Origin: an uncultured Alphaproteobacteria bacterium
GTDB lineage: Bacteria > Pseudomonadota > Alphaproteobacteria > RF32 > CAG-239
Direction of reading: 5' to 3'
DNA length: 64,000 nucleotides
Assembly (NCBI GenBank): GCA_944392835.1
Contig: CALXYB010000003.1
Location: forward strand, 73,389-137,388
Shown here: piece after piece, positions 372-50,024 of the stretch
Numbering within the stretch: the first letter of the stretch is position 1
How the letters are laid out: each line of letters starts with the position of its first letter
The notes under the pieces: model-generated
The model's input: the letters and a program-made list of their open reading frames with translations, nothing else
Told to the model about the DNA's origin: nothing
Databases searched by the model: none
Program-made: the position numbers and the translations under genes

Positions 372-1370
372 ATGTTATTTGAAGGATATGATAGAAGAAT
401 TGAAAAAATTACTCCGGTTTTGGCAAAATACGGTTTTTCAAAAATTGAAGAGACCAGAGATTTTTGCCTAAGCAAAGGTGTTGATGTTGAAAAATTGGTT
501 AAAGGTATTCAACCAATTGCGTTTGAAAATGCTGTTTGGGCTTATACCTTAGGTTGCGCTATAGCTCTGAAAGAAAATGTTAAAAATGCTTCCCAGGCTG
601 CTGAAAAAATCGGTATCGGCTTGCAAGCATTCTGCGTCCCGGGTTCTGTTGCAGACCAAAGAGCTGTTGGCTTGGGGCATGGTAACTTGGCCGCTATGTT
701 GTTAAGAGAAGAAACAAAATGTTTCTGTTTCTTGGCTGGTCACGAATCTTTTGCTGCCGCTGAAGGTGCTATCGGTATTGCTCGTTCTGCCAACAAGGTT
801 AGAAAAGAACCATTAAGAGTTATCTTGAACGGTTTGGGCAAAGATGCTGCTTACATCATTTCTCGTATCAACGGCTTTACTTATGTTGAAACCGAATATG
901 ATTATAGTACCGGCAACTTAAAAATCGTAGAAGAAAAAGCCTTTTCAACCGGCGATAAAGCCAAAGTAAAATGCTATGGTGCTGATGACGTATCAGAAGG
1001 TGTTGCCATTATGATTAAAGAAGGCGTTGATGTTTCTATTACCGGAAACTCTACCAACCCGACACGCTTCCAACATCCTGTTGCAGGCACATACAAAAAA
1101 TGGGCCGTTGAACACGATAAGAAATATTTCTCCGTAGCTTCTGGTGGCGGTACAGGTCGTACTTTACACCCCGATAACGTTGCAGCAGGTCCTGCATCTT
1201 ACGGTATGACCGATACCATGGGCAGAATGCACAGTGATGCGCAATTTGCCGGTTCTTCATCTGTACCAGCTCACGTTGAAATGATGGGCTTAATCGGTAT
1301 GGGTAACAACCCGATGGTCGGTGCAACGGTCGCTGTTGCCGTAGCTATTGAGGAAAGCCTCAAAAAGTAA
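372..1370 (+). CDS. GGGtGRT-family protein, uncharacterised (Pfam PF14057-like).
   Basis: The 332-aa product contains the eponymous SGGGTGRT motif. Its length fits the typical 329-345 aa range of that family. An AAGGAG-like RBS (gagaaaggagtaagccATG) lies upstream. Confidence 0.65.
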   Translation: MLFEGYDRRIEKITPVLAKYGFSKIEETRDFCLSKGVDVEKLVKGIQPIAFENAVWAYTLGCAIALKENVKNASQAAEKIGIGLQAFCVPGSVADQRAVGLGHGNLAAMLLREETKCFCFLAGHESFAAAEGAIGIARSANKVRKEPLRVILNGLGKDAAYIISRINGFTYVETEYDYSTGNLKIVEEKAFSTGDKAKVKCYGADDVSEGVAIMIKEGVDVSITGNSTNPTRFQHPVAGTYKKWAVEHDKKYFSVASGGGTGRTLHPDNVAAGPASYGMTDTMGRMHSDAQFAGSSSVPAHVEMMGLIGMGNNPMVGATVAVAVAIEESLKK

Positions 1371-1667: not shown

Positions 1668-1781
1668 AAAGTCGGAATTGAACGAACCCTTGGGTTTGAA
1701 TCCCGACGAAACGAGGTAAGTATTTGAAAACAAAAAAAATCCCTACACAATGCAGGGATTTTTAACTGGTGAGCGCGTCGG
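1668..1781. repeat. Downstream copy of the 114-bp repeat. It is fused to the intact tRNA-Lys gene.
   Basis: The two copies are directly aligned by eye. Differences are the GA/AG transposition at acggag/acgagg and acacgaggcag versus acacaatgcag. Confidence 0.8.
1731..1765 (-). terminator. Intrinsic terminator for tRNA-Lys. It is bidirectional in shape. A duplicate copy lies at ~1527..1561.
   Basis: The sequence is aaaaaaaATCCCTacacaatgcAGGGATtttt. A 7-bp stem is flanked by an A-run and a T-run. It sits immediately 3' of the tRNA on the minus strand. Confidence 0.6.
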
Positions 1782-1842
1782 GATTCGAACCCGAGACCCT
1801 TTGATTAAAAGTCAAATGCTCTACCGACTGAGCTACGCACCC
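1767..1842 (-). tRNA. tRNA-Lys, anticodon UUU.
   Basis: The minus-strand reading is GGGTGCGTAGCTCAGTCGGTAGAGCATTTGACTTTTAATCAAAGGGTCTCGGGTTCGAATCCCGACGCGCTCACCA. The cloverleaf is drawn by hand, with two G-U pairs in the acceptor stem. The anticodon loop is CTTTTAA, and CCA is encoded. Confidence 0.9.
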
Positions 1843-2003
1843 ATTGTTTTTCAACAACGAGCATATAGATAGTCTATAAAAATTTTATAGTCAACAAAAA
1901 AAATAAAAAAAGTTAAAAAAAGTCAAAATGTAGTTTATTTGTTAATAATTATATGTTAGCATTCCATAAAATTTAATAATAATCACGACTTTTGAGGTTA
2001 GAA

Positions 2004-2333
2004 ATGGTTAAGGATATTCATTCAGAGCAAGAAGGCAGATACGATATTTTACAGAATGGTGCGGGTGAGCTTCTTATTATCATCAGATATCGCGAGGGTG
2101 GTCCTGAAAACCCGCGTTTGGTTTATGATGGCGGTGCGCATGCCTTGCTTTATCGGAGCCGTGAGAGTGCCGTTTTGTTAGATTCTATCAATATGGCCGC
2201 CCGTCAACCATTAAAGTCGGCTGATGAAGTTACTATGGTTGAGATTGAGGAGGACGAGGTTGCCCGCGAATATAAGGTTCCGGTACGCATTGTTCGTGAT
2301 TTAGAATCTTTGAGTGCCTCTAAGAGTGCCTAA
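2004..2333 (+). CDS. Hypothetical small protein. The start is chosen at the ATG that follows the GAGG RBS.
   Basis: The ORF is 110 aa. A GAGG RBS lies 7 nt upstream of the ATG at 2004. A terminator follows the ORF. I recognise no motif. Confidence 0.4.
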   Translation: MVKDIHSEQEGRYDILQNGAGELLIIIRYREGGPENPRLVYDGGAHALLYRSRESAVLLDSINMAARQPLKSADEVTMVEIEEDEVAREYKVPVRIVRDLESLSASKSA

Positions 2334-2364
2334 CTAAGCTAAACTTATGCACAACAGCGTTAAA

Positions 2365-2392
2365 ATAAGGGCTTTAAAAGCCCTTATTTTTT
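2365..2392 (+). terminator. Intrinsic terminator.
   Basis: The sequence is AATAAGGGCTTtaaaAGCCCTTATTTTTT. Confidence 0.6.
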
Positions 2393-2433: not shown

Positions 2434-4101
2434 ATGATAGCAAAATTATTTTTTGCCTTGCTGGCCGGAGGAATAACGGCGGAAGTTTTGACCAGAAGCA
2501 GGTTTGAAAAAGCGCTGTCTTTTTTGTTACTGTGTTTTTTGGCGCTATGGGGAGTTTGGATATTTGAGGCGGAAAGCCTTGGCTTGGTTAATAAATTTTC
2601 TTTTCATTGGATAGATGCCTCATTGATGCGTGTAAACATAAACCTCAACACATCGCCGGAGGTTTGTCGGCTTGTCTTTGCCTTGCTTATCATATCTGCA
2701 TTATCTGTTTTTTATAACACCTTTTACAAAGCCGAAACCGAAGGACTGCGCCTAAATGGCCTTTTGACCTTAAATTTGGCAATGCTGGTCTCAATAATAT
2801 GTTCACAAAATTTTATACAGTTGTTAACAGCTGTTTGCATTACAGATGTTCTTTGCCTTCTGATGATTAACGATATAGAGAGCAAGCGGCGCTATGCTTT
2901 TTATAACTTGCTTGCGGATATGGGGTTGTTCACGCTGTTTGCCTTAATCTGGAAGCAAACAGGCAGTATTGATTTGGCTGTTTTAGGCAAATATCATCGT
3001 CTTGGGCAATATCCGGAGCTAACCTTGGGGCTGTTGTTGCTCTGTGTTTTCATCAAATCCGGCATTTTTTTATGTCATGGCGGACTTTTGAGCCTGGCGA
3101 GTCTGACATTTAACCGTATTTTGGCAATTTCTTATTGTTCAGCGCCGATAGTTGGCATTTTGCTGCTGATTAAAACTTATCCCTTGTTGGAAAATATCCG
3201 TTATATGAAGGAAATATTTTTAGGTTTTGGCGGCGCAACCCTGCTTTGGGGTTTTGTTGGCAGTCTTGTTCTGGACAACATAAAAGATAAAGCATTGTAC
3301 TTTAACCAAATGATATATGCGTTTATGCTTGGGGCGCTGGCTTTAGGTACAAAAGATGTAGATGAACTGTTGCCTCTGGTTTTGGCTTTGGGTTTTGTGC
3401 TTAATGCTGTTTGGATGTTAACGACCATATCTGCCTCAAACGAACTATTTGTTTCCAATATGGGGGGATTTATTCGTCCTTTGAAGTTGCTTTTTGCCAC
3501 CATATTGGTTTTAAGTTTTGTGTTTGTTCAAATTTTAGGCTCAAGAATAACAGTACCCAATGAACTCTGGACATATAGTTTTGAGGCAATATTCTTGGTT
3601 GCTTTGGCGCATATCTCATTCCAAATCTTCTTAGGCAAGAGCAATGCGGATGAGCGTGTTTTAGCTTTTTTGAAAAATCCGTCGCTATTAAATCTTTTGC
3701 CTCTATGGATAATCTGCGGCATAATCATCTGGCAGCAGGAAAAGCCCACGACACAAATGTGGATAATCTGGGGAGCCTTTGTAGCATTTTGGCTGTCCGG
3801 CCCCTTAAGAACTTTGGGTAAAGCTTACGATTCAGAGAATCTTCAGGAGGCAGATTGGCTTCATGACTTTTATCAAGCTGTTTTGATTGCCCCGATAAAG
3901 ATTCTTGGGCGAGTTCTTTGGCTACTGATAGACTTTTTGATAATAGAGCGCACAATTGTGTCTTCTTTGACATCGGGGAGCAACTTGCTGGTCAGAGTTT
4001 TAGATCGTATGCATACGGGCAGTGTGTTTTCCAATGCTGGCTATGTGTTTTTAGGTTTAGGGCTGTTTGCCGCAATAATTTATGCAAAGGTGTATAACTG
4101 A
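2434..4101 (+). CDS. nuoL: Highly divergent NuoL-like antiporter-like polytopic membrane protein (complex I subunit L, MrpA/MrpD superfamily).
   Basis: It is a 555-aa multi-helix hydrophobic protein. It is first in an L-M-N ordered operon directly upstream of birA, matching the conserved alphaproteobacterial nuoN-birA-rnj synteny. The canonical HTWLPDA...TPVSALIHAATMV region is only faintly recognisable (KSGIFLCHGGLLSLAS). The stop overlaps the next start (TGATG). Confidence 0.5.
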   Translation: MIAKLFFALLAGGITAEVLTRSRFEKALSFLLLCFLALWGVWIFEAESLGLVNKFSFHWIDASLMRVNINLNTSPEVCRLVFALLIISALSVFYNTFYKAETEGLRLNGLLTLNLAMLVSIICSQNFIQLLTAVCITDVLCLLMINDIESKRRYAFYNLLADMGLFTLFALIWKQTGSIDLAVLGKYHRLGQYPELTLGLLLLCVFIKSGIFLCHGGLLSLASLTFNRILAISYCSAPIVGILLLIKTYPLLENIRYMKEIFLGFGGATLLWGFVGSLVLDNIKDKALYFNQMIYAFMLGALALGTKDVDELLPLVLALGFVLNAVWMLTTISASNELFVSNMGGFIRPLKLLFATILVLSFVFVQILGSRITVPNELWTYSFEAIFLVALAHISFQIFLGKSNADERVLAFLKNPSLLNLLPLWIICGIIIWQQEKPTTQMWIIWGAFVAFWLSGPLRTLGKAYDSENLQEADWLHDFYQAVLIAPIKILGRVLWLLIDFLIIERTIVSSLTSGSNLLVRVLDRMHTGSVFSNAGYVFLGLGLFAAIIYAKVYN

Positions 4102-5531
4102 TGATAACCTCTTTCAACTTTTTATCAACGATTATAGCCATTCCGTTTATTGGCGTATTATTTGCGCTCACAGCCAAAGATGATGATAAGACCCGAGGCC
4201 GCAACGCTTTTAATGTGAGTGTTTTTGCCGTAATAACCAATCTTTTGGTTTTGTGGCGCATAGCCGCATTGTTAGACATTTCAGCCACTGGTTTGCAGCT
4301 CACCGAACGCTATGACTGGTTAGAGAATCCCAAAATAAGCATTTCTTTGGGGATAGATGTTTTTTCGCTGTTGTTGATTGTGGCGGTTCACGCAGCGGTC
4401 TTAATCGGAATGTTCGGCGCAAGGCACAATAAGGAAGACGGCAAGGCATTGATGGTCTTTTCTCTGCTGTTTTTATGTATGATAACCGGCTTTTTCACGG
4501 CGGCGGATATTTTTTCTTTTTACATCTTTTTTGAGGCGATGCTGCTGCCTTTGTTTATGATAATCGGAATGTTTGGCGGCCTGCGCAAACAAAGTGTTTT
4601 GTCCCGATTCTTTATATATAATTTGTTGGGCGCCATCTTTTTGTTTTTTGCGACCGTCATTTTGTACAATTATCAAGGAGTCAATATTGCCTTAAATGAT
4701 GTAAGCAAAGTCAACCTGAATATGAAACTGGAGATATTTGTCTGGGGGGCTATATTTGTTTCGTTTCTTTCCAGAATTCCGATCTGGCCGTTTCATTACT
4801 GGATATCATCCATCAGCACGGGCTTGCGTAATCCGTTAGTTTTCATCATCACCAATCTGGTACCTTTAACGGGCGTATATGGTTTTATAAGGTTTTGGCC
4901 GAAGACAGTCCCCGGCGTGTTATCTTATTTTATGATAATATTAGAGATAATCTGCGTTATCTCAATGTTATTTATTGCCTTAATCGGCCTGATTAATAAG
5001 GACTTCCAGTATAAAATATTTTCTTTTATGACCGTCTGGTACATCATCTATTTATTAGCCGCTTTTTTGCCAACGGATACGGTTTTGCAAAATATCGGCT
5101 ATGCGCTGTTTTCGTTTTTGATTATTGCCGGCGGTATGGAGGTCTTGTCCAACCATATGGAAAAACAGCAAGAGAGTTTGGATATAAGTTCCGGCGGCAT
5201 ACTATGTGCGATGCCTAAAGCCGCCAGAATTTTCACCTTTTTTGTTTTGGCTGCAGTGGGAATGCCTTTGTCCTCAATGTTTTTGAACAATTTTGTCTTG
5301 ATAGCCAACTTGTTAGATAAAAACATCCGTATGGGCTTTTTGGTTATCTTTGCCATTATGGTTGTTGCCGCGGGCTTGTTGCAAGAGTTGTATTGGCTCA
5401 AAGACACAGAATGTTCTTTGCCGGACAAAAGCGGCATAGCCGACATTTCATATAAAGCTTATGTAATTTTGCTGATAATATGCGCATCGTTGGTTTTGAC
5501 ATTCATCAACCCCTTGTGGTTTATTGTTTAA
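4101..5531 (+). CDS. nuoM: Highly divergent NuoM-like antiporter-like membrane protein.
   Basis: The 476-aa product is translationally coupled to the upstream gene. The motif WPFHYWISSISTGLRNPLVFIITNLVPLTGVYGFIRF resembles the NuoM HxWLPDA...PVSALI...G.YG..R block. The PDA core is lost. Confidence 0.5.
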   Translation: MITSFNFLSTIIAIPFIGVLFALTAKDDDKTRGRNAFNVSVFAVITNLLVLWRIAALLDISATGLQLTERYDWLENPKISISLGIDVFSLLLIVAVHAAVLIGMFGARHNKEDGKALMVFSLLFLCMITGFFTAADIFSFYIFFEAMLLPLFMIIGMFGGLRKQSVLSRFFIYNLLGAIFLFFATVILYNYQGVNIALNDVSKVNLNMKLEIFVWGAIFVSFLSRIPIWPFHYWISSISTGLRNPLVFIITNLVPLTGVYGFIRFWPKTVPGVLSYFMIILEIICVISMLFIALIGLINKDFQYKIFSFMTVWYIIYLLAAFLPTDTVLQNIGYALFSFLIIAGGMEVLSNHMEKQQESLDISSGGILCAMPKAARIFTFFVLAAVGMPLSSMFLNNFVLIANLLDKNIRMGFLVIFAIMVVAAGLLQELYWLKDTECSLPDKSGIADISYKAYVILLIICASLVLTFINPLWFIV

Positions 5532-5543
5532 GAAGGAAGAAAG

Positions 5544-6971
5544 ATGAAGCCTGAAATTATTGCCATAATGCCGGAAGCCTCAATACTGCTAGGTTTGTTG
5601 ATAATGACCCTGGTCAATTTTTTTCGTCATTATAATACGCCGAAAACCTTTTTTACCTTAAGTAAGCTAACTTTGGTTTTTGCACTTTTGAGCACAATCA
5701 TTTTTTATAACCGAAGTTGGTTTCCGACAGTCTTTGAAAACACCGCTTACACCAGTTTGTTTAAGAGTATTATATATCTGTTGTCTTTAGCTTGGGCATA
5801 TTTGTCCTGCAAGTGGTTTTTAAACAAAAATATCTCAAGTTTTTCATATTACGGACTAATGCTCTTGTCTGTTTTGGGAATGTCCTTGGCAGTTTCTTCA
5901 CTTAATTTTTTAGCATTGTTTATTTGCTTGCAAGGCACATTTTTGCTCAACTGGTTCTTCATCCGCATCGGAGATGAGGATGAAGAGGAAAAGCATCAAG
6001 CATCTAACCGATTTTTAGGCTTTGCCGTGTTCTTTGCTTTGTTGTTTGCGGCAGGTTGCGGATTGCTTTATATGCGTACGGGAGATTTGGAATATGCGGA
6101 TATATACAGCCACTTCAGCCACACATCAAAATTAGTCTGGATTGATTATGCCGCGGCAGGAATGATTTTAGCCGCCATGATTTTTATGTTAGGTTTGGTA
6201 CCGTTTCACTTTTGGTATATTGATGTTATTGGGGTTGCGGTTTTGCCTGTGAGCGGATTCTTGAGCATAATACCGTTATTTGCTTATGTTGCATGCATAA
6301 CCGATGTTGTGCTGAATGCCTTTTTCCCTGTATGGAATGTGTTTAGACCTGTTGTCGTAATTTTTGGTATAATGTCTGTTGGTTTTGGCGTAATCGGCGC
6401 AAATGCAGAACAAAATATGCGAAGATTATTTGGTTTCAGCTCATTATATCATTTAGGCATAATCATTTTGTGCTTGTCTGCTTTTGATGACAATTCGGTT
6501 TTAAGTAGTTTTATTTATATGTTGGTATATGTCTTGGCAATGAGTGGTGTTTATACCGGATTTTTAGGCATCAGAAGCAAGGGCGTATATTTAAGCGAGC
6601 TCGGAACCGTGTCAGGTTTTTCGGAAGTAAGACCATATATTTCGGCAGCCTTTTTGGTCTTTCTGATTTCGCTTATTTCCACCCCGCCGTTACTAGGTTT
6701 CTTGGGCAAATTGTCGGTTGTAAACAATTTGGTCATTCAGGGCGAATATGAGATAATCTTGTTTGTTTTGTTGGCAGTGTTGATGTTGGCTTATGCATAT
6801 TTAAAGGTGATTAAAGCGCTTTATTTTGATGAGAGGACGAATTCCTTTGACCGCGTGGATAAAGGGGTGTATATATGCTTAACCGTAAATCTGATTTTGG
6901 TTTTGATATCTATCTTAAACCCCAAATATCTGATGAACGATGTTGAAGCCATGCTGACCACCATTTTTTAA
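5544..6971 (+). CDS. nuoN: Divergent NuoN-like antiporter-like membrane protein.
   Basis: The product is 475 aa. VPFHFWYIDVIGVAVLPVSGFLS matches the NuoN PFHFW(V/T)PDVYQGAPTPVTAFLA block. The N-terminus (EIIAIMPEASILLGLLIM) resembles the NuoN N-terminus. birA follows immediately, as in alphaproteobacteria. A GAAGGAAG RBS is present. Confidence 0.6.
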   Translation: MKPEIIAIMPEASILLGLLIMTLVNFFRHYNTPKTFFTLSKLTLVFALLSTIIFYNRSWFPTVFENTAYTSLFKSIIYLLSLAWAYLSCKWFLNKNISSFSYYGLMLLSVLGMSLAVSSLNFLALFICLQGTFLLNWFFIRIGDEDEEEKHQASNRFLGFAVFFALLFAAGCGLLYMRTGDLEYADIYSHFSHTSKLVWIDYAAAGMILAAMIFMLGLVPFHFWYIDVIGVAVLPVSGFLSIIPLFAYVACITDVVLNAFFPVWNVFRPVVVIFGIMSVGFGVIGANAEQNMRRLFGFSSLYHLGIIILCLSAFDDNSVLSSFIYMLVYVLAMSGVYTGFLGIRSKGVYLSELGTVSGFSEVRPYISAAFLVFLISLISTPPLLGFLGKLSVVNNLVIQGEYEIILFVLLAVLMLAYAYLKVIKALYFDERTNSFDRVDKGVYICLTVNLILVLISILNPKYLMNDVEAMLTTIF

Positions 6972-6985
6972 GAAGAGGCCAAAAA

Positions 6986-7708
6986 ATGTCAGCTTGGGAA
7001 AGATTTGATTTTGCGGAAACCACCAGCACCAATGATGAGGTCAAAAAGCTTTGCGAAACGGAGCAAGGCGGCAAAAAGCTTATGGTAACCGCAGCAAGGC
7101 AAACGGCGGGCAGGGGCAGACGCGGCCGCAGCTGGATAAGTATGGACGGCAATTTATTTGTTTCCTTTGGTGTTGAGGTTGAACCAAGAACTTTAGGGCA
7201 AATAACTTTTGTGATAGGTTTAAGCCTGTTAGAAGCGATTCGCCATTTTGCGCCCAAGATTGATGTTAAGCTAAAATGGCCGAATGATGTCTTGGTAAAC
7301 AGTAGCAAAATATCAGGCATCTTGCTGGAAAAAGCGGCCGGAAATTATCTGGTTGTAGGTGTTGGTGTTAATGTCGCGTCAGCACCTCAAGGAGAGGGCA
7401 TAAGCTATACCGTAGCCTCATTAAAAGAAGCCGGAATAACAACTGATAAGGAAGCATTTTTGCAAGTTTTTGCTAAAATTTTTGATGAGAGATTATCAGA
7501 GCTGAAAAGCAAAGGTTTTGCCCCGATAAGAGAAGCTTGGCTGAATAATGCCAAAAACTTGGGGCAAAAGATAACGGTAAATATGGAACACGAGAGTAGA
7601 GAAGGAAAATTTTTGGGCATAGATGAGAATGGTGCGTTACTTTTGAAAAGAGAAGATAAAACAGAAAAAATCTATGCCGGAGATATATTTTATTTAGAGG
7701 AAAAATAA
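6986..7708 (+). CDS. birA: Biotin--[acetyl-CoA-carboxylase] ligase BirA, group I with no N-terminal HTH.
   Basis: The GRGRRGRSW motif is the BirA biotin-binding signature. The product is 240 aa. The gene follows nuoN, as in alphaproteobacteria. Confidence 0.8.
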   Translation: MSAWERFDFAETTSTNDEVKKLCETEQGGKKLMVTAARQTAGRGRRGRSWISMDGNLFVSFGVEVEPRTLGQITFVIGLSLLEAIRHFAPKIDVKLKWPNDVLVNSSKISGILLEKAAGNYLVVGVGVNVASAPQGEGISYTVASLKEAGITTDKEAFLQVFAKIFDERLSELKSKGFAPIREAWLNNAKNLGQKITVNMEHESREGKFLGIDENGALLLKREDKTEKIYAGDIFYLEEK

Positions 7709-9376
7709 ATGAGCAGTTTTGATAAAGAAGGGCTGTATTTCATAGCTTTGGGCGGCGCGGAAGAAGTCGGTTACAACATGTATGTCTATGCCGCGGATGG
7801 CAAGTTGATAGTGGTAGATTGCGGCTATGGCTTTTTTAATGATGACTTTCCCGGAATGGAATTAGGCTTTGCATCGCCGGAGGCTTTGGAGGGAGAGATT
7901 GAAAATATTGAAGGCTTGTTTATTACACATTCACATGAGGACCATTTTGGCGCGGTGGCACATATTTGGCCCAAACTTCGTTGCCCGATTTATGCCACGC
8001 CTTTTGCCGCAGAGCATATTTTGGCAAGGTTAAGAGATTATAAATTGGAAAAAGAGCCGCAAATTAATGTGATAAAAGACGGCGAGAGTGTAAAACTTCA
8101 AAACTTTGAGGTGAAGTTTGCGTCATTAGTGCACTCAACTTTGGAAAACTCGGCTTTGCTGATTAAAACCAAATACGGCAATGTCGTTCACGCCACGGAT
8201 TGGCGCTTTGATGACGGAAGCTGTGATATGTTGCCTTTTGATTATAAGGCATTTAAGGAGTTTGCCGAGGAGGGGGTAGAGGCTTTTGTCTGCGATTCTA
8301 CCAATCTGATGGACACGGAAGAACAACCGACAGAGATGCAGGTCAGACAAAGCTTAATGAAACTTGTGCCGACATTTAAGAATAAGCTTGTGGCAACGTG
8401 TTTTGCCTCAAATGTTGTTCGTTTGGAAAGCCTGATTTTGGCTGCACATGAGGCAGGGCGCACACCGGTTGTCGCCGGCCTGAGTTTGAACCAGAATTTG
8501 AAGATGGCCAAAGATTGCGGCTATTTACAAAATCTGCCGCCATATGTAAATGCCAAAGATGCCGCAGATATTCCCAATGATGAGATAATGTACATTTGTG
8601 CCGGCTCACAAGGAAATTATCGCAGCGGTTTAACCCGAATAGTTAATCGTGAAAACAAGGATATGATTTTGTGTCCCGGAGATGCGGTTATTTTCTCATC
8701 TAAGATTATCCCCGGAAACGAGAAAAAAATAGAGCGTATGCAAGAAAAACTCCGCGACCAAGGCGTAGAGGTTATTAGTAAAGAGGAATATCTGGTGCAT
8801 TGTTCGGGACACGGCGGCAAGAAGGAAACCCGCCAAATGTACGAGATTTTGAAGCCAAATGTGCTGATAACCGTGCATGGCGAAAGACGCGTGATAAGAG
8901 AACATAGCCGCTTTGCCAAAAGTTGCGGCATTAAGCATGTCCTAATGCCGAGAAACGGCGATGTCCTATTGCTGAACGGTGATAATATTGAAACGGTAGG
9001 TGAGGTCCCGACAGATATCCTGGGTGTTGACCGCAACCAAATAACCTCAATTAATTCGCAACTTGTCAAAAACCGCAAACGTATAGCTTTTAATTGCAGC
9101 GTGTTTATTACGGCTGTTTTAAGCGAAGATTGGACGGTTGAATATTTGGATATCTCGGCCATAGATATCTTGGAAGAAGGGGCTTGGAATGCGCTTGCGG
9201 AAGAGATTAAGCCTGATATGATTAAGGCAATCCCCGAAGAGGTGATAAAGCTAAATCATCGGGAGAGCGCGGTTAAGGAATATATCAGCGCCAAAATCCG
9301 CAAACGCATATATAACCAAACAGGTATCAAGCCGGTCGTATTTATGCATTTTCATAAGAAAGAAACAACGGCATAG
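7709..9376 (+). CDS. rnj: Ribonuclease J, metallo-beta-lactamase fold RNase.
   Basis: HSHEDH is the HxHxDH motif. The product is 555 aa. The start overlaps the birA stop (TAAATG). The birA-rnj synteny is conserved. Confidence 0.8.
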   Translation: MSSFDKEGLYFIALGGAEEVGYNMYVYAADGKLIVVDCGYGFFNDDFPGMELGFASPEALEGEIENIEGLFITHSHEDHFGAVAHIWPKLRCPIYATPFAAEHILARLRDYKLEKEPQINVIKDGESVKLQNFEVKFASLVHSTLENSALLIKTKYGNVVHATDWRFDDGSCDMLPFDYKAFKEFAEEGVEAFVCDSTNLMDTEEQPTEMQVRQSLMKLVPTFKNKLVATCFASNVVRLESLILAAHEAGRTPVVAGLSLNQNLKMAKDCGYLQNLPPYVNAKDAADIPNDEIMYICAGSQGNYRSGLTRIVNRENKDMILCPGDAVIFSSKIIPGNEKKIERMQEKLRDQGVEVISKEEYLVHCSGHGGKKETRQMYEILKPNVLITVHGERRVIREHSRFAKSCGIKHVLMPRNGDVLLLNGDNIETVGEVPTDILGVDRNQITSINSQLVKNRKRIAFNCSVFITAVLSEDWTVEYLDISAIDILEEGAWNALAEEIKPDMIKAIPEEVIKLNHRESAVKEYISAKIRKRIYNQTGIKPVVFMHFHKKETTA

Positions 9377-9530: not shown

Positions 9531-9977
9531 CTAGACGAGTTCGTCAACTTCTTCAAGAACTTTGTTTGTTTCGTAAAAATGTTTAAGATAATTATGTCCG
9601 GTGCGTTCAACCTCATCATCTTTGACGATGGTTTGGTTGTTGCCATAGACATTAACTCTGGTAGAGTGGTGGTCATCAGGTTCATCATAAACACCGCTGG
9701 CGCTCAAAGCTTCAATAGCACTGGGGATATATGCGCTGCCACTGCTCAAAGAATTATTTGCACCTTTTTCTTTTTTATCAAAAGAGGCGTTGTCTTTGTC
9801 TTTATCATGACGATTGTTATCATTGTTGACCGAAACATTATTGGAAGAATCAATAATTTCCACAAAAGACTCTCCTTCAGCCCCAACAAGATAGTTGTGG
9901 TCTGAATGCTTAACGGGAGCGTTTCGTGTTTGACTTCCGGTTGAGCTCGATACTTTTCTGGTAGACGATATGCTCAT
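9531..9977 (-). CDS. Orphan hypothetical protein, acidic and Ser/Asn/Asp-rich low-complexity, with no transmembrane segment.
   Basis: The product is 148 aa. A GGAGAAAG RBS lies 3-4 nt before the ATG. It is a separate transcription unit; a terminator lies between it and tatA. The plus-strand ORF 9486..9905 looks like antisense noise. Confidence 0.45.
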   Translation of the reverse strand: MSISSTRKVSSSTGSQTRNAPVKHSDHNYLVGAEGESFVEIIDSSNNVSVNNDNNRHDKDKDNASFDKKEKGANNSLSSGSAYIPSAIEALSASGVYDEPDDHHSTRVNVYGNNQTIVKDDEVERTGHNYLKHFYETNKVLEEVDELV

Positions 9978-43104: not shown

Positions 43105-44169
43105 TTGGAGCCGGTTTTGTCTGAAAATAATCTGGTTATTTCAATCGACGCAATGGGGGGAGATAATTCCCCCCGAGTCGTAATAGAGGGCTTGGCAATT
43201 GCAGCCAAGAAAAATCCGGACACCAAGTTTTTGTTGTTCGGTAAAGAGGCGCAAATTAGAGAAATCCTCAACAATTATCCTCAGCTTCAAAAGGTTTGCG
43301 AGATTCGCAACGCTGATGAAGTCGTCCGCAATGAAGACAAACCGTCTTCGGTCATTCGTAACAAAAACACCAGCATGTATATGGCAATAGATGCCGTCCG
43401 CAAAGGCGAGGCGCAAGCTGTGGTCTCAGCCGGCAATACGGGCGCTTTGATGGCTATATCTAAAATGGTGTTAAAAACAATCCAAAAGATTCATCGTCCG
43501 GCAATTGTGAGCATGATGCCCCACATCAACGGCAAGTATGTTATGCTGGATTTAGGTGCGAATACCGAATGCAGTGCCATCAATCTGGCAGAGTTCGCTA
43601 TGATGGGTGATATTTTGGCGCGTTGCGCTTTGGGGATTACTCGTCCGCGCGTGGCATTATTGAATATTGGCGCGGAAGAAATGAAGGGCAAAGAAGAGAT
43701 TCATAAAGCCGCTCAGATGATTCGCAACTCACATATGAATATTGATTTTATCGGTTATATTGAGCCGCATGAGATTCCCAACAACAAGGCAGATGTGATT
43801 GTTGCAGATGGTTTTACGGGCAATATTGCCTTAAAGTCCATAGAAGGAACGGCGCGTTTGGTTATGCGGATGATAAAAAATGCGGTTAAGGGTTCTTTCT
43901 TGGCAAAAATCGGTTTGCCTTTTATGATGGGAGTCGTTTTAAGAATCAAAAAGACGATGGACCCACGGTTGTACAACGGAGCAATGTTTGTCGGGCTTAA
44001 CGGTTTATCCGTAAAAAGTCATGGCGGAACGGATGCTTTGGGTTTTTCTGTTGCGGTAAACAATGCGGCAAGTTTGGTTCGCCAAAACTTTGTTGCCGCC
44101 ATTCGCAACGAAATTGAAAAAATAGATTTGGATGAATTATCACAGGAAGCAATTTATGACTTGTATTAG
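43105..44169 (+). CDS. plsX: Phosphate acyltransferase PlsX.
   Basis: ISIDAMGGD is the PlsX N-terminal signature. The start is TTG at 43105, or more likely TTG at 43117 with a GGAG 6 nt upstream. Confidence 0.85.
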   Translation: MEPVLSENNLVISIDAMGGDNSPRVVIEGLAIAAKKNPDTKFLLFGKEAQIREILNNYPQLQKVCEIRNADEVVRNEDKPSSVIRNKNTSMYMAIDAVRKGEAQAVVSAGNTGALMAISKMVLKTIQKIHRPAIVSMMPHINGKYVMLDLGANTECSAINLAEFAMMGDILARCALGITRPRVALLNIGAEEMKGKEEIHKAAQMIRNSHMNIDFIGYIEPHEIPNNKADVIVADGFTGNIALKSIEGTARLVMRMIKNAVKGSFLAKIGLPFMMGVVLRIKKTMDPRLYNGAMFVGLNGLSVKSHGGTDALGFSVAVNNAASLVRQNFVAAIRNEIEKIDLDELSQEAIYDLY

Positions 44170-45136
44170 ATCAGAGATTATTGGGCACGGACACTATCAG
44201 CCGGCAAAAGTTTTAACAAATGATGATATGGCCAAGATTGTTGAGACCAGCGATGAATGGATTACCGAAAGAACAGGTATCAAGTCCAGACATATTGCCG
44301 CTGAAGGTGAGTTGACATCAGATTTGGCAATGCATGCAGCCGAGATGGCTTTAAGAACGGCAGGCATCAGTGCAGAAGAACTAGATTTGATTGTTGTCGG
44401 TACCGTAACTCCGGATAATACGTTTCCTGCAGTTGCAACAAAAATAGCAGCAAAGTTGGGTTGCCGTCATGGTATTCCTGCTTTTGACCTTTCAGCAGCT
44501 TGCTCAGGCTTTGTATATTCTCTGACAATGGCAGATAATATGCTGCGTTTAGGCCAAGCCAAGACAGCTTTGGTTATTGGCGCCGAGACTCTTTCTCGCG
44601 TAACGGACTGGACAGACCGCAACACTTGTGTTTTGTTTGGAGACGGTGCGGGCGCAGTAGTGATTTGCGCTTATGAAGGCAAGGGCGACACAACAGACCG
44701 CGGAGTCTTGAGCACAAAAATCTTTTCAGACGGTGCGCAATATGACAATTTATATTGCAAAGGCGGTGTTTCAAGCACTCAGACGGCAGGTTTTACATTT
44801 ATGAACGGCAAGGAAGTATTTAAAAGCGCCATTGGTTGCTTGACACAAGCCGCGGAAACAGTTGCCGAGCAAGCCGGTATTAAGGTAACAGACATTGATT
44901 GGTTGTTGCCCCACCAAGCCAATATTCGCATTATTGAAGGTGTTGGTAAAAAATTAGAGTTACCGGAGAGCAAGGTTATTGTAACCATTGATCATCAAGC
45001 CAATACATCCGCCGCATCAATTCCTTTGGCATTATCAGAATGCTTAGAGAGCGGAAAAATCAAAAAAGGTGATTTGGTTATATTCAACTCTATGGGTGCA
45101 GGCTTCACTTGGGGCGGCGCACTGGTCAGAATTTAA
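44156..45136 (+). CDS. fabH: 3-oxoacyl-[ACP] synthase III.
   Basis: The product is ~326 aa. The active-site Cys context is AFDLSAACSGFVYSL. The C-terminal GFTWGGALVR is present. The start is chosen at MTCIRSEIIG; the longer ORF-track N-terminus is an artefact. Confidence 0.9.
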   Translation: MTCIRSEIIGHGHYQPAKVLTNDDMAKIVETSDEWITERTGIKSRHIAAEGELTSDLAMHAAEMALRTAGISAEELDLIVVGTVTPDNTFPAVATKIAAKLGCRHGIPAFDLSAACSGFVYSLTMADNMLRLGQAKTALVIGAETLSRVTDWTDRNTCVLFGDGAGAVVICAYEGKGDTTDRGVLSTKIFSDGAQYDNLYCKGGVSSTQTAGFTFMNGKEVFKSAIGCLTQAAETVAEQAGIKVTDIDWLLPHQANIRIIEGVGKKLELPESKVIVTIDHQANTSAASIPLALSECLESGKIKKGDLVIFNSMGAGFTWGGALVRI

Positions 45137-47297: not shown

Positions 47298-49220
47298 TTA
47301 GTAATAATATCTTCCGCCCATGCGGTCTCTTTGTCGTTGTTTCATATATTTTTCAAGAGCCTTGTAAGGGGTTCTTTTGGGAGAAATACAATTGAAGAAA
47401 GCATTAGCTAAGCTATAACCGGACATATTACGACTGGTTTTAATATCCAAAGAATCTTTAATCTTCTGTTGTTGTCTTTCTTTTTCGGATTCTGGAATAT
47501 TAAGGCGGTTAATATATTCAGCATATTCCAAAGCATCTTGTTTTTGTCTTTTTGTCAGATTAACGATACTCTTGCTGATACGAAATGAAACTTCAGGATA
47601 AGCGGCTTCCATTTCAAGGTCTTTAATAGATGAAAGAAATTGGTCTAGGTCAGTATTTACGGTATCCTTAGCCGAGTTTGTTAATTCATAAAAGCGCAAC
47701 ATTTCTTTAAACCAAGGGGTTGTATAGGCATGGAGTTGATAGCCTGCATCCATATTTTGCAAAACCATAAAACCGCGTCTTTCACTCCATAAAATAGAGT
47801 TAATGGTTTTAGGTTGGATGCCAATAGCTCCGGCATTAATCTTTTTTTCCAAATGGTTATTCAGTTTTTTAAGGTACAAACCGTAAGCTTCATGTTTGGC
47901 AAAAGGATAGGTAACATCCATAATCTCTTCCAACAAATGCTTAGTATCTTTATCATTAATTTGCGGAGTTTCCAAAGTTCTTGGTGTCGTGTTATTCATC
48001 AGTCTGCGCAAAATTTCAATATTAGTAGTTAGATTACCTTGAGAATCTCTTGTAGAGGCATCATATTTTTTGATGTTAAGTAAATTATCGGACTGAATGT
48101 CATAATCAGGATATTTTTCTTCAACATATTTAAGGACACGCTCTAACTTTTGTTTGCGATAATCAACATCCAAGTTTGGGTCAAGACCTTTAACAGCATC
48201 ATAGTACAAAACCATACGTTTAAGAATTTTATGCTGTTCGGGTTGTTGATTATGAATATAAGAACGCAAGTTAGGGAAGCTTTCATTGATGGCAATAGCA
48301 TCAAGTCTGATTTGCTCAAATCTATTTTCATCGCTTGAAGGTATTTGCTCGGCAATACGACAAAGACGTGTAATATTATAAGGTGTAACCCGAGAAGTTA
48401 AGCATCTGAAAACAAAACCGCTGCTTCCGTGGTCGGTAATATCTGTTCCCCACAGATTTCCGACCGAACTTAGAATTTTATTTTTTCCGCTTTTAATGAG
48501 TGGAACTACGTTATTAATGGCACCATAAGCCAAGTCATCATCAATAGAGGGTAGTTTTTCAATATATTTATCAAAATGGAGAGCAAAGAGCATAAATTTA
48601 GCTGGGGTCAATTTATCAATTGCTTTATCCATAATATCCAGACGTTTTACTTCATCTTGCGCATCTCTGATATTTCTTTTGGTAAAGATAGGGGTTTTAA
48701 CTTGCCCCATATTAGCAATTAATACGCCATAATCCACGGAATAAAACTTATCTATAATTTCCCTTTTAGTAAATTCAACATCCGTTTCATGGTGTGTATT
48801 ATAAAAGACAGAGATATTTATACTATCATTTTTTGCATAGTTCAGAACCTTAGGGAAGGTTTGAGCAATTTTATCAATCAAAATATCATTTTCATCAATG
48901 CTTTGAGGTTCCTTGATATAGTTGCTCAGAACACGACATAAAAGGTTTTTATCATCATCTTCGTTCAATGTTTGAGCAAAATCTGAGAATTTATTGGAGA
49001 TTTGGATAATCTTATGCAATTCAATAGGGTTTTTTGTGCAAAGTTGATAAAGCAATTCAGCTTGAGGAACTTTGAACTTTTTACCAATATTAAGGTTATC
49101 AGCAATATGTGAGATTAATTTGAAATTTTGAGCTTGTATATGCACATCATCAAAATTATTTTTAAGCCGTTCGTTGATGTCATTCACCAGAACGGACGAA
49201 AGAGAAGAATTTTCTGTCAT
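47298..49220 (-). CDS. Large orphan hypothetical protein, Asn/Lys/Ile/Asp-rich with a basic C-terminal tail.
   Basis: The intact ORF is ~640-655 aa, with the start at either GTG 49265 or ATG 49220. It has no recognisable catalytic motif. It ends ...KQRQRDRMGGRYYY. Confidence 0.4.
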   Translation of the reverse strand: MTENSSLSSVLVNDINERLKNNFDDVHIQAQNFKLISHIADNLNIGKKFKVPQAELLYQLCTKNPIELHKIIQISNKFSDFAQTLNEDDDKNLLCRVLSNYIKEPQSIDENDILIDKIAQTFPKVLNYAKNDSINISVFYNTHHETDVEFTKREIIDKFYSVDYGVLIANMGQVKTPIFTKRNIRDAQDEVKRLDIMDKAIDKLTPAKFMLFALHFDKYIEKLPSIDDDLAYGAINNVVPLIKSGKNKILSSVGNLWGTDITDHGSSGFVFRCLTSRVTPYNITRLCRIAEQIPSSDENRFEQIRLDAIAINESFPNLRSYIHNQQPEQHKILKRMVLYYDAVKGLDPNLDVDYRKQKLERVLKYVEEKYPDYDIQSDNLLNIKKYDASTRDSQGNLTTNIEILRRLMNNTTPRTLETPQINDKDTKHLLEEIMDVTYPFAKHEAYGLYLKKLNNHLEKKINAGAIGIQPKTINSILWSERRGFMVLQNMDAGYQLHAYTTPWFKEMLRFYELTNSAKDTVNTDLDQFLSSIKDLEMEAAYPEVSFRISKSIVNLTKRQKQDALEYAEYINRLNIPESEKERQQQKIKDSLDIKTSRNMSGYSLANAFFNCISPKRTPYKALEKYMKQRQRDRMGGRYYY

Positions 49221-49376
49221 AATCAAAAACCAATTAGTTAAAATAGAATGAAGGAAAGCTAGCACAGCTTTATTGAAAAAGCAAATGATTTTCTGTCTAA
49301 AATTAATTTTGTTACATAAATGGTGAATAACTAAGCAAGATGATTATATAAAAAAGAAAACAAAAGGAGAAAAGAC

Positions 49377-50024
49377 ATGAAAAGATTAAGTTCAGCCAGA
49401 AAAGATTATTTACATGTTATGAGTATGTTATGGGATTTTTTTACAAGTAAAACAGGCGCATTTATAATTGGTGTTGGAGCAATTGTTATCGGTATGTATC
49501 AATTTTACATCAGCAAACCGATTTTGGAATATGAATCAGCACATACCAATATTATTTCTGCGGCAGATGTAAGTGATTTGAAAGTAACTGTTAAAGAAAG
49601 AGAATATAAGGATATGTATTTAACGACTTTAACTTTGCTGAATACAGGTTCTCAGGCCTTAGATGGCGGAGATGTATCCAAAATCGGTCATGATCCGATA
49701 AGAATAATTGTCCCCGAAGATGCGCGTTTAGTGGCTTATAACATTAATACCAAACAGACTTCTCCGGCAGTTTCGGCTAAGCTTGTGCCCTATGACGGAG
49801 ATATAGTAATTGATTTTGATTTTTTGAATCCCGACAATCAGATAGCCATAAATCTTTTGCACGAAAAAGAAAGCGATAAATTTGAGATAGTTGGTAGCGC
49901 GGTTAATGTTAATAGTATAAGCAGAGCTTGGAGTCCTGTTCAAAAGCGAGAAATGATAATAGGTATATTGTTGGTTTGCTTTGCGTTATATATTTTTGCT
50001 AATATTTTAAGCAGGCGCTCATAA
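49377..50024 (+). CDS. Hypothetical bitopic membrane protein, with N- and C-terminal transmembrane helices.
   Basis: The product is 215 aa. Hydrophobic segments are GAFIIGVGAIVIGMYQFYI and MIIGILLVCFALYIFANIL. An AAAGGAG RBS is present. Confidence 0.4.
   Translation: MKRLSSARKDYLHVMSMLWDFFTSKTGAFIIGVGAIVIGMYQFYISKPILEYESAHTNIISAADVSDLKVTVKEREYKDMYLTTLTLLNTGSQALDGGDVSKIGHDPIRIIVPEDARLVAYNINTKQTSPAVSAKLVPYDGDIVIDFDFLNPDNQIAINLLHEKESDKFEIVGSAVNVNSISRAWSPVQKREMIIGILLVCFALYIFANILSRRS

Follow-up and report, generated by a model that had tools for sequence, protein, structure and literature searches.

Three consecutive membrane-protein genes in the 64-kb stretch of alphaproteobacterial DNA analysed here (the window) are the 3′ remnant of an ancestral alphaproteobacterial nuoA–N operon, preserved in its original position. 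The encoded NuoL-, NuoM- and NuoN-like proteins retain the antiporter-like fold of complex I and almost nothing of the canonical proton relay, yet all three genes are under strong purifying selection, so the membrane module probably performs a job other than respiration.

The NuoL-like (ORF1, 2434–4101, 555 aa), NuoM-like (ORF2, 4101–5531, 476 aa) and NuoN-like (ORF3, 5544–6971, 475 aa) genes are intact and lie on the plus strand. Directly downstream on the same strand are birA (biotin-protein ligase, 6986–7708), the ancestral 3′ neighbour of nuoN, and rnj (RNase J, 7709–9376), the second ancestral neighbour. An earlier note on this DNA had described this order of intact genes, and its coordinates proved exact. 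The overlap between ORF1 and ORF2 is 1 nt, and the gaps that follow measure 12 nt (ORF2–ORF3), 14 nt (ORF3–birA) and 0 nt (birA–rnj), so that the five genes form one tightly packed string with no terminator between the N-like gene and birA. A terminator-like hairpin (2362–2390, plus strand; 13-bp stem followed by a T-run) separates ORF1 from a small upstream ORF, which suggests that the triad begins its own transcription unit. A weak promoter-like site on the plus strand (2373–2400; TTTAAA-16-TATATT with an extended TG), a consensus match only, lies 34 nt upstream of the ORF1 start codon. The adhE gene that had been noted in the same window is present at 55943–58579 on the minus strand.

The three ORFs are homologs of NuoL, NuoM and NuoN, with a likeness far beyond chance. 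The Proton_antipo_M model (PF00361) matched ORF2 (E = 5e-26, 92 bits) and ORF3 (E = 2e-31, 110 bits), for which the top NCBIfam models were NDH_I_M and NDH_I_N, respectively. Both proteins scored below the NCBIfam cut-offs (ORF2, 195.5 bits against 263.8 bits for TIGR01972; ORF3, 218.4 bits against 332.6 bits for TIGR01770), and the NuoM equivalog cut-offs stand at 550 bits or more. ORF1 alone gave no Pfam (PF00361 or PF00662) or NCBIfam match at E ≤ 1, and a single member of its family (P0042) carries a precomputed PF00361 match; ORF1 was placed by its family profile and its structure. The best 17 matches of the family profile in the PDB were all ND5, NuoL or NdhF (best E = 3.5e-12), with a few weaker matches to MrpA and NuoN. 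With a pLDDT of 82, the AlphaFold2 (AF2) model of ORF1 resembles chain L of complex I: Foldseek ranked Paracoccus NuoL first (TM 0.77, E = 1e-19), and the best 50 matches were all chain L or NdhF. The best PDB matches of ORF2 and ORF3 were Paracoccus NuoM (4e-30) and NuoN (1.7e-29). Remnant and canonical subunits are only 17–23% identical, with about 17% between the L-like protein and canonical alphaproteobacterial NuoL, whereas canonical subunits share 54–66% among themselves. These results show that the antiporter-like fold is kept in the L-, M- and N-like proteins.

To assess the proton relay, we compared 62 L-like, 62 M-like and 59 N-like sequences with canonical reference sets (43 NuoL, 46 NuoM and 75 NuoN) in which 21 key channel positions are 100% conserved. 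In the L-like proteins, the TM5 Glu (E144) is replaced by Cys, Phe or Ser and is acidic in 0/62 sequences; H254 in TM8 and H334, H338 and K342 in TM11, all present in 43/43 canonical sequences, have disappeared; and the TM12 Lys-Asp motif (K399 and D400, likewise 43/43) is deleted, leaving only the equivalents of D178 and K229, as D162 and K208. The M-like proteins (E. coli numbering) carry K234R, K265L and E407N in 62/62 sequences each, where the original residues occur in all 46 canonical sequences; H322Y is found in 61/62 and H348 has become Phe or Tyr, while E144 is kept in 52/62 and H241 in 62/62. Among the N-like proteins, K247 is kept in 0/59 sequences, and the formerly NuoK-facing E133 (7/59) and K217 (4/59) are variable, all three being present in 75/75 canonical sequences; K395 (42/59) and H224 (57/59) are largely retained. 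HMMER alignments to the Paracoccus subunits gave the same residue mapping, and in many cases the substituted residue does not itself vary. Most of the 21 positions are thus replaced or deleted, and this erosion of proton-channel residues supports the interpretation offered in the earlier note. Its reading of the conserved motif block as eroded in the L- and M-like proteins and partly kept in the N-like one, which reads LVPFHFWYIDVIGVAVLPVSGFLS, also held. Taken together, the alignments show the loss of nearly the whole canonical relay: the TM8 Lys/His and TM11 His/Lys residues, the TM5 Glu of the L- and N-like proteins, the TM7 Lys of the N-like protein and the TM12 Lys-Asp motif of the L-like protein. 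The divergence is global and extends beyond the channel, with 19% of ionisable and 31% of Gly/Pro residues kept at canonically invariant positions (Fisher p = 0.09), and a ‘selective sealing’ of the channel is therefore not demonstrated statistically.

Several polar or charged intramembrane residues are retained or newly fixed (D162 and K208 in the L-like protein; E145, R225, H232 and N396-N397 in the M-like protein; K389 in the N-like protein) and could support a non-canonical ion path. The trimer, or its subunits individually, might then act as a stand-alone cation/proton antiporter, a uniporter or a regulated leak in the pH or Na+ homeostasis of a fermenter energised by an F-type ATPase, and F1 ATPase genes do lie within the window. 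The strong selection on all three genes, the pairing of E145 with R225, the invariance of N396-N397 at the TM12 break, the high conservation of the broken-helix motifs of the M-like protein and the presence of K389 in 71% of N-like sequences fit this reading. We nevertheless regard it as unlikely, as the TM8 Lys/His and TM11 His/Lys residues that link the half-channels are replaced in all three proteins, mostly by hydrophobic residues, the L-like protein has no TM12 Lys-Asp motif and the Lys-to-Arg exchange in TM7 of the M-like protein removes a titratable group. Mrp antiporters (MrpA and MrpD with MrpB, C, E, F and G) are likewise stand-alone, redox-uncoupled assemblies with PF00361 subunits; however, the triad descends from Nuo, with Nuo models outscoring MrpD about threefold (195 against 60 bits and 218 against 79 bits), has no mrpB/C/E/F/G-like genes nearby and lacks the Lys and Glu residues on which transport by Mrp depends. 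Membership in the Mrp cation/proton antiporters was rejected, given the low MrpD scores and the lack of other membrane-subunit genes flanking the triad. A DAB- or CUP-type CO2-hydration module was also rejected, since no DabA (DUF2309)- or CupA/B-like family occurred in any annotated neighbourhood.

The lateral helix HL of NuoL, a feature that the earlier note had proposed to look for, is present in the L-like protein with an alphaproteobacterial signature and unchanged length. In the AF2 model, a 52-residue helix (residues 475–526; 3856–4011, plus strand) is followed by the terminal anchor helix TM16 (residues 531–554; 4024–4095, plus strand). HL is the most conserved segment of the L-like family, with P487, G492, R493, L495, W496, L497, D500, F501 and E505 found in 62/62 sequences. 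Canonical alphaproteobacterial NuoL also has P487, G492, R493, L495, W496 and D500, and it has an invariant Asp at the position of E505, whereas L497 and F501 are specific to the remnant (Lys and Gly in canonical NuoL); the motif residues occur in 35–43 of the 43 canonical sequences. The helix spans 52–53 residues in remnant and canonical proteins alike, and the sole PDB match of the L-like C-terminal segment was the HL of Paracoccus NuoL (residues 623–693), with an identical LGRVLW motif. Charges beside the N–M and M–L junctions are also kept. Conservation is highest in the M-like protein, where 80 positions reach ≥95% and the broken-helix motifs are among the best-conserved parts. From the HL signature with its exact length, and from the three genes never occurring apart, we infer that the predicted L-M-N arm probably still assembles, clamped by the lateral helix.

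A conserved clamp and conserved inter-subunit junctions would also be expected if L-M-N were the membrane module of another energy-converting complex with partners encoded elsewhere, such as a ferredoxin- or hydrogenase-linked module of the Ech/Mbh/Fpo-like kind or the HymABC-type hydrogenase. Related metagenome-assembled genomes (MAGs) do encode HymABC hydrogenases with NuoE/F/G-like subunits, together with PFO (PMC4967309), and there is precedent for incomplete complex I operons taking on other modules (PMC4453560). This reading is quite improbable, because the known complexes all need NuoH/B/D/I-type connectors and an intact relay, no such connectors were found near the triad in 65 genomes, and the face of the N-like protein toward NuoK/J/A is relaxed and variable. 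The known partial operons (Nuo11 lacking NuoEFG, and the NDH-1, Fpo and Campylobacter types; PMC4453560) resemble the triad as nuo subsets re-used after module loss, but they have lost the NADH-oxidising N-module while keeping the Q-module, NuoH/A/J/K and working pumps; the triad consists of pump subunits only, without the pump residues.

The genomic context shows the triad to be the remnant of a nuo operon, since in all 24 canonical loci with a length of 15 kb or more the order is nuo(E)FGHIJK-L-M-N-birA-rnj, as the earlier note had supposed from the L-M-N order and the nuoN-birA-rnj synteny. In the remnant clade, comprising about 60 species-level gut or rumen MAGs, the order is [tRNA-Lys / small ORF]-L-M-N-birA-rnj. 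The break between nuoK and nuoL is common to all of these species, the L, M and N genes were never seen apart in the relatives examined, and the triad is intact and syntenic throughout except at one locus (L041), where frameshifts are accompanied by one in rnj; the genes flanking the locus vary among subclades. Canonical loci have nuoE–K directly 5′ of the triad. Neither the window nor the roughly 10 kb around the triad in 65 related genomes contained a nuoA–K homolog, and none occurred in 70 related loci, so the co-encoded NuoA–K that would define a complex I system are missing at this locus, and the absence of preceding nuoA–K genes that the earlier note reported extends to every relative examined. 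These data show that nuoA–K were deleted from this locus in the ancestor of an anaerobic, gut-associated Rhodospirillales-like clade. As to lifestyle, adhE and F1 ATPase genes occur in the window, and related gut MAGs are reported to lack any terminal oxidase (PMC6431628) and to encode FeFe-hydrogenases and PFO (PMC6431628, PMC4967309). From the local absence in relatives, the relaxed NuoK-facing residues of the N-like protein and the reports on terminal oxidases, we infer a probable genome-wide loss of complex I. As the inspection took in roughly 78 kb of this genome and some 20 kb from each relative, a complete nuoA–K set could lie elsewhere, with the triad as the sole L, M and N of a working complex I, possibly with reduced pumping. 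Such an arrangement is very improbable in view of the nuoK/nuoL break shared by about 60 species, the loss of the pumping residues, the free variation of E133 and K217 in the N-like protein, the reported lack of every terminal oxidase in related MAGs and the low identity to canonical subunits.

The triad is under strong purifying selection, similar to that on birA. The dN/dS values (NG86) were 0.07–0.17 for the L-like, 0.02–0.08 for the M-like and 0.07–0.28 for the N-like gene, compared with 0.10–0.15 for birA; the better-resolved pairs gave 0.02–0.17, the value of 0.28 being that of the N-like gene in the closest pair. ORF lengths are conserved down to about 21–24% identity. These dN/dS values, the intact genes in about 60 species and the invariant replacement residues contradict the description of the triad as a relic in the sense of decay, and a pseudogene was ruled out, with no general frameshift, stop or length decay and dN/dS far below 1. 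Although the packed L-M-N-birA-rnj string, with a terminator 5′ of L and none between N and birA, would suit non-functional relics kept open only to avoid polarity on the essential birA and rnj, this idea is effectively refuted by the dN/dS values of 0.02–0.17, as polarity avoidance puts no limit on missense changes, and it also leaves the conserved M-like positions, the invariant replacements, the fixed HL length and the conserved ORF lengths unaccounted for.

Purifying selection on all three genes indicates that the triad is kept for some new purpose. We somewhat favour a reading, drawn from sequence and predicted structure, in which L-M-N forms an assembled, non-pumping complex put to other use, most likely as a pseudo-transporter that has a structural or scaffolding role in the cytoplasmic membrane. 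Deletion of nuoA–K in the clade ancestor would have left L-M-N in place 5′ of birA-rnj. The relay residues would then have been lost while the arm remained assembled and held by the HL clamp, and the N-like residues once facing NuoK would have been freed to vary while the junction charges were kept. With the relay gone, the junction charges kept and the NuoK-facing residues free to vary, the complex would have ceased redox-driven or canonical Mrp-type proton translocation, and a non-respiratory role requiring the assembled trimer may have maintained it. The scaffold role is arrived at by elimination, and flanking genes differ among subclades. Of the new functions suggested in the earlier note, a canonical cation/proton exchanger is disfavoured, because the Lys/His of TM8, the His/Lys of TM11 and most of the charges in TM5 and TM12 have been lost, and a membrane scaffold fits better. 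The wider proposition, that the distal arm with its HL clamp can persist as an autonomous, selected membrane machine once redox modules, E-channel and relay have gone, we rate at slightly below an even chance. If it is correct, pumping is not the only cellular function of antiporter-like modules; the second one could be membrane organisation, or new transport or binding at the invariant Arg and Asn-Asn sites of the M-like subunit.

The canonical alphaproteobacterial and mitochondrial distal arm (NuoL/ND5, NuoM/ND4 and NuoN/ND2; Paracoccus denitrificans, PDB 8qby) shares with the triad the L-M-N-birA-rnj order, the antiporter-like fold with its broken TM7, and HL with TM16 and the motif P..LGR.LW...D...I[DE]. 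The triad differs from it in having no upstream nuoA–K, in the replacement or deletion of most of the relay residues, in scores under the NCBIfam cut-offs, with ORF1 below Pfam detection, and in the length of the L subunit (555 aa against a canonical median of 688 aa). A parallel in terms of catalytic loss is found in Acetobacteraceae, where the ‘deranged’ respiratory proteins are a bc1 complex and a COX1-like protein without cofactor ligands (PMC10715153). These are likewise alphaproteobacterial respiratory subunits without catalytic residues, encoded by intact genes and presumably structural (PMC10715153). However, they are proposed to stabilise respiratory complexes or partners that those bacteria still possess (PMC10715153), whereas the rest of the parent complex of the triad is apparently gone; in addition, a whole three-subunit arm is preserved here and the selection on it is quantified.

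The clade thus offers a natural dissection of complex I, in which the preserved features (the fold, the junction charges, and the HL motif with its exact length) distinguish the needs of assembly from those of pumping. That the module is retained at all suggests a role for antiporter-like modules that lies outside bioenergetics and has so far gone unrecognised. Homologs of ORF1 are without a name or an annotated domain, and annotation would wrongly make the M- and N-like proteins subunits of NADH dehydrogenase. Metabolic reconstructions could then infer respiration in error for these Alphaproteobacteria, which are common in the gut and rumen. Because these MAGs have been discussed in debates on mitochondrial and hydrogenosomal origins, the dismantling of their complex I is also of evolutionary interest.

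The region upstream of the triad is conserved as well. The small ORF (1992–2333, plus strand) encodes a conserved, soluble, beta-rich protein of about 104–109 aa, with Met5 at 2004 probably being the true start. The earlier note had called it an orphan; in fact, its family is highly conserved and comprises 383 clusters, and the gene lies immediately 5′ of the L-like gene in most relatives, and the protein could be a partner in the new function if the module is indeed an autonomous machine. In almost every relative, the tRNA-Lys(UUU) gene (here 1767–1842, minus strand) and the small ORF form a divergent pair; the tRNA gene marks the upstream boundary of the former nuoA–K site. The tRNA reported in the earlier note is thus a conserved neighbour, and the integration scars described beside it are a 114-nt direct repeat (1464–1577 and 1668–1781) that carries a second copy of the 3′ end of the tRNA gene with its terminator hairpin.

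The three consecutive genes of the triad, all on the forward strand and all intact, encode ORF1 (L-like, 2434–4101, 555 aa), ORF2 (M-like, 4101–5531, 476 aa) and ORF3 (N-like, 5544–6971, 475 aa). ORF1 and ORF2 overlap by 1 nt, a gap of 12 nt separates ORF2 from ORF3, and birA (6986–7708) and rnj (7709–9376) follow downstream. Pfam PF00361 matched ORF2 (E = 5e-26) and ORF3 (E = 2e-31), and the top NCBIfam models were NDH_I_M for ORF2 and NDH_I_N for ORF3, with scores well under the curated cut-offs (195 vs 264 bits and 218 vs 333 bits, respectively). The best matches of these two proteins were Paracoccus NuoM and NuoN, with the plant mitochondrial subunits ND4 and ND2 next. ORF1 had no match in Pfam or NCBIfam. 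Its family profile, searched against the PDB, hit ND5/NuoL chains only (E = 3.5e-12). The AlphaFold model of ORF1 (pLDDT 82, pTM 0.79) retrieved complex I chain L in all of the top 50 Foldseek matches, the best being NuoL of the alphaproteobacterium Paracoccus with a TM score of 0.77 and an identity of only 16%. These matches together confirm the L-M-N identity and order assigned in the earlier note. By exact-sequence look-up in public sources, none of the three had a name.

To place the triad, 80 canonical alphaproteobacterial loci were fetched using the Paracoccus NuoN sequence. Each of the 24 loci that reached 15 kb displayed the order nuo(E)FGHIJK-L-M-N-birA-rnj; our full-text literature search yielded no statement of the nuoN-birA-rnj synteny, which is established here from these loci. 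In the window, L-M-N-birA-rnj is thus the ancestral nuo operon's 3′ end, unchanged in position. Using E. coli queries, phmmer revealed no real homolog of NuoA, B, CD, E, F, G, H, I, J or K in the 64-kb window, and no real NuoA–K homolog within ~10 kb on either side of the triad in related loci. A profile scan of species-representative genomes yielded 65 such loci, all from uncultured Alphaproteobacteria MAGs of gut, rumen or caecal origin (mouse, deer, chicken and human samples among the hosts), including Ca. Scatocola (Rhodospirillales by NCBI taxonomy) and ‘Azospirillum sp.’ UMGS bins. Essentially every locus that was long enough carried L-M-N-birA-rnj with three intact ORFs. The exception was L041, the sole related MAG with a split N-like gene, in which both this gene (5511–6892) and rnj (7670–9323) are frameshifted or split; errors of assembly or sequencing are a likelier cause here than real pseudogenisation. 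The most divergent member (~21% identity) keeps the order small ORF-L-M-N-birA-rnj within wholly different outer flanks.

Proton-channel residues were compared in an alignment of 62 L-like, 62 M-like and 59 N-like remnant sequences with 43 NuoL, 46 NuoM and 75 NuoN canonical sequences, and relay positions are given in E. coli numbering. With E. coli NuoL as its sole partner, the ORF1 family gave a weak hhalign match (34% probability) that did not settle the TM5 and TM12 positions of the L-like protein; these were settled once the 43 canonical alphaproteobacterial NuoL sequences joined the alignment. All 21 key relay positions are 100% conserved among the canonical sequences. In the L-like protein, E144 is replaced by Cys, Phe or Ser and is acidic in none of the 62 sequences, H254, H334, H338 and K342 are Ser or hydrophobic, and the K399-D400 break motif of TM12 is deleted; D178 (60/62) and K229 (62/62) are kept. 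The M-like protein keeps E144 in 52 of 62 sequences and H241 in all 62, while K234 is Arg, K265 is Leu and E407 is Asn in 62/62, H322 is Tyr in 61/62 and H348 is Phe or Tyr. In the N-like protein, E133 and K217 are variable (kept in 7/59 and 4/59) and K247 is kept in 0/59, with K395 (42/59) and H224 (57/59) largely retained. HMMER alignments to the Paracoccus subunits reproduced this mapping. The full set of channel residues is thus clearly not present in the 62, 62 and 59 remnant sequences, and the erosion that the earlier note had proposed is borne out. D138 was considered as a shifted TM5 acid of the L-like protein and rejected, as only 34 of the 62 sequences carry it. Among canonically invariant positions, 19% of the 78 ionisable ones were kept, compared with 31% of Gly/Pro positions (p = 0.09); since the divergence is general, we do not claim selective removal of ionisable residues or selective sealing of the channel.

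Conservation in the L-like protein peaks in its C-terminal lateral helix (HL). HL residues P487, G492, R493, L495, W496, L497, D500, F501 and E505 are invariant in 62/62 sequences; the majority also belong to the canonical alphaproteobacterial NuoL signature (35–43/43), and L497 and F501 are specific to the remnant. The HL spans 52–53 residues in every remnant and canonical sequence. The single PDB match of the C-terminal segment was the HL of Paracoccus NuoL (residues 623–693, with LGRVLW identical), and the AF2 model shows one unbroken helix (475–526) followed by a terminal TM helix (531–554). Of the three subunits the M-like protein is the most conserved, with 80 positions at ≥95%, including the broken-helix motifs R225-I-P-x-W-P-F-H-x-W and G387-x-P-x-S-x-x-F-x-N-N. 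Complex I is built so that the TM12 charge of a subunit adjoins the TM5/TM7 pair of the next. On that architecture, the retained charges would map to the N–M junction (K395 of N; E144/R234 of M), and the M–L junction would hold N407 of M with D178/K229 of L. Each subunit has lost its central-axis residues, and the TM5/TM7 pair of the N-like protein, which once faced NuoK, is both lost and variable.

This residue pattern suggests that the NuoK/J/A partner is absent, that the L-M-N assembly may still be clamped by the HL, and that canonical lateral proton transfer has probably ceased. We therefore favour, with moderate confidence, a pseudo-transporter in which L, M and N still assemble but no longer pump, retained for a membrane role that lies outside respiration and is probably structural. 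A non-canonical ion transporter or leak would account for the polar sites that are retained or newly fixed, but it seems unlikely given the lost TM8 and TM11 connectors, the TM12 deletion in the L-like protein, the Lys-to-Arg change in the M-like protein and the absence of the small Mrp subunits. Docking of the triad onto another module encoded elsewhere is rather improbable, and docking onto a distant nuoA-K set in the same genome is slightly more so; neither agrees well with the relaxed NuoK-facing surface of the N-like protein or with the metabolism of related gut MAGs, which are reported to be devoid of all terminal oxidases and to ferment via PFO and FeFe-hydrogenases (PMC6431628, PMC4967309). 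The concept nearest to an LMN-only remnant is that of the ‘deranged’ respiratory proteins of Acetobacteraceae, whose retention is proposed to be structural (PMC10715153). In the partial complex I operons that are known, NuoEFG have been lost and working pumps kept (PMC4453560). Our full-text literature search found neither an account of an LMN-only remnant nor a metabolic reconstruction of the remnant clade covering complex I.

Selection on the triad was estimated as NG86 dN/dS over pairs with unsaturated dS; the window's comparisons with the related loci L008 and L010 were left out because dS was saturated. The values were 0.07–0.17 for the L-like, 0.02–0.08 for the M-like and 0.07–0.28 for the N-like gene (0.28 coming from the closest pair, with very few substitutions), compared with 0.10–0.15 for birA and 0.02–0.04 for rnj. 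These values refute the notion, which we consider barely credible, that the ORFs are kept open merely for read-through into birA-rnj. The length of ORF1 homologs stays at ~550 aa throughout, from 96% down to ~21–30% identity. Searched with the family profile, 1.84 billion representative proteins gave 142 members at E < 1e-30 and only 481 matches at E < 1e-3; the ORF1 family is coherent and far from ordinary NuoL. Identity to canonical alphaproteobacterial subunits is 17% for the L-like protein of the window and 23% for each of the M-like and N-like ones; the canonical subunits are 54–66% identical among themselves. The intact ORFs in relatives, the low dN/dS and the steady ORF1 length argue against the decay that the word relic in the earlier note would imply.

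Synonymous divergence differed 3–4 fold between adjacent genes of the same genome pair when window positions 2434–9376 were compared with the related loci L006, L007 and L008. Against L007, dS was 0.9–1.5 for L/M/N and 0.26–0.36 for birA/rnj. The closest pair is a mosaic, with a dS of 0.02 for the N-like gene and 0.42 for the small upstream ORF. This unevenness suggests inter-strain recombination, or codon constraint that varies strongly from gene to gene of the operon.

The small ORF (1992–2333) upstream of the L-like gene had been taken for an orphan. It belongs instead to a family of 383 clusters, its homologs among the matches listed (at least 120) are all at least 63% identical, and its dN/dS is 0.01–0.06. 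Nearly all relatives have it in a divergent pair with tRNA-Lys(UUU), and its usual place is immediately before the L-like gene, although in one subclade it is ~6 kb distant. Its membership of the triad system is uncertain because a terminator-like hairpin (2362–2390) parts it from ORF1. The integration scar proposed beside the tRNA corresponds to a 114-nt direct repeat (1464–1577 and 1668–1781, 96% identical, 204 nt apart) that copies the last 15 nt of tRNA-Lys and its downstream terminator hairpin; it resembles either a tandem duplication on a small scale or what is left of an att-site.

The rest of the window carries housekeeping genes together with adhE (55943–58579, reverse strand) and F1 ATP synthase genes, the latter forming a string of delta/OSCP, alpha, gamma, beta and epsilon at about 22.5–27.7 kb on the forward strand. 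In a fermenter that has adhE and apparently does not respire, this string would fit with an ATPase running in reverse to energise the membrane. The protein at 44132–45133 had no record by exact-sequence look-up. A 655-aa ORF without a Pfam match (47298–49265, reverse strand) falls where the GC content of the window is lowest (48000–50000; GC 0.33 vs about 0.42) and adjoins a glycosyltransferase gene block (50.6–55.4 kb); the region may be a horizontally acquired surface-polysaccharide island. Just downstream of rnj and convergent with it is a 148-aa ORF (9531–9977, reverse strand) without a Pfam match, for which the source contig carries a gene call and which is followed by a TatA-like 74-aa gene. 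At the start of the window, a GGGtGRT-family gene (372–1370, forward strand; PF14057, E = 8e-198) is preceded by an ORF ending at 368 that encodes a 234-aa protein without a Pfam match. The upstream position of this pair is conserved in the closest relatives, and in the related locus L001 a Fer4_20/Pyr_redox_2 oxidoreductase lies farther upstream of it.
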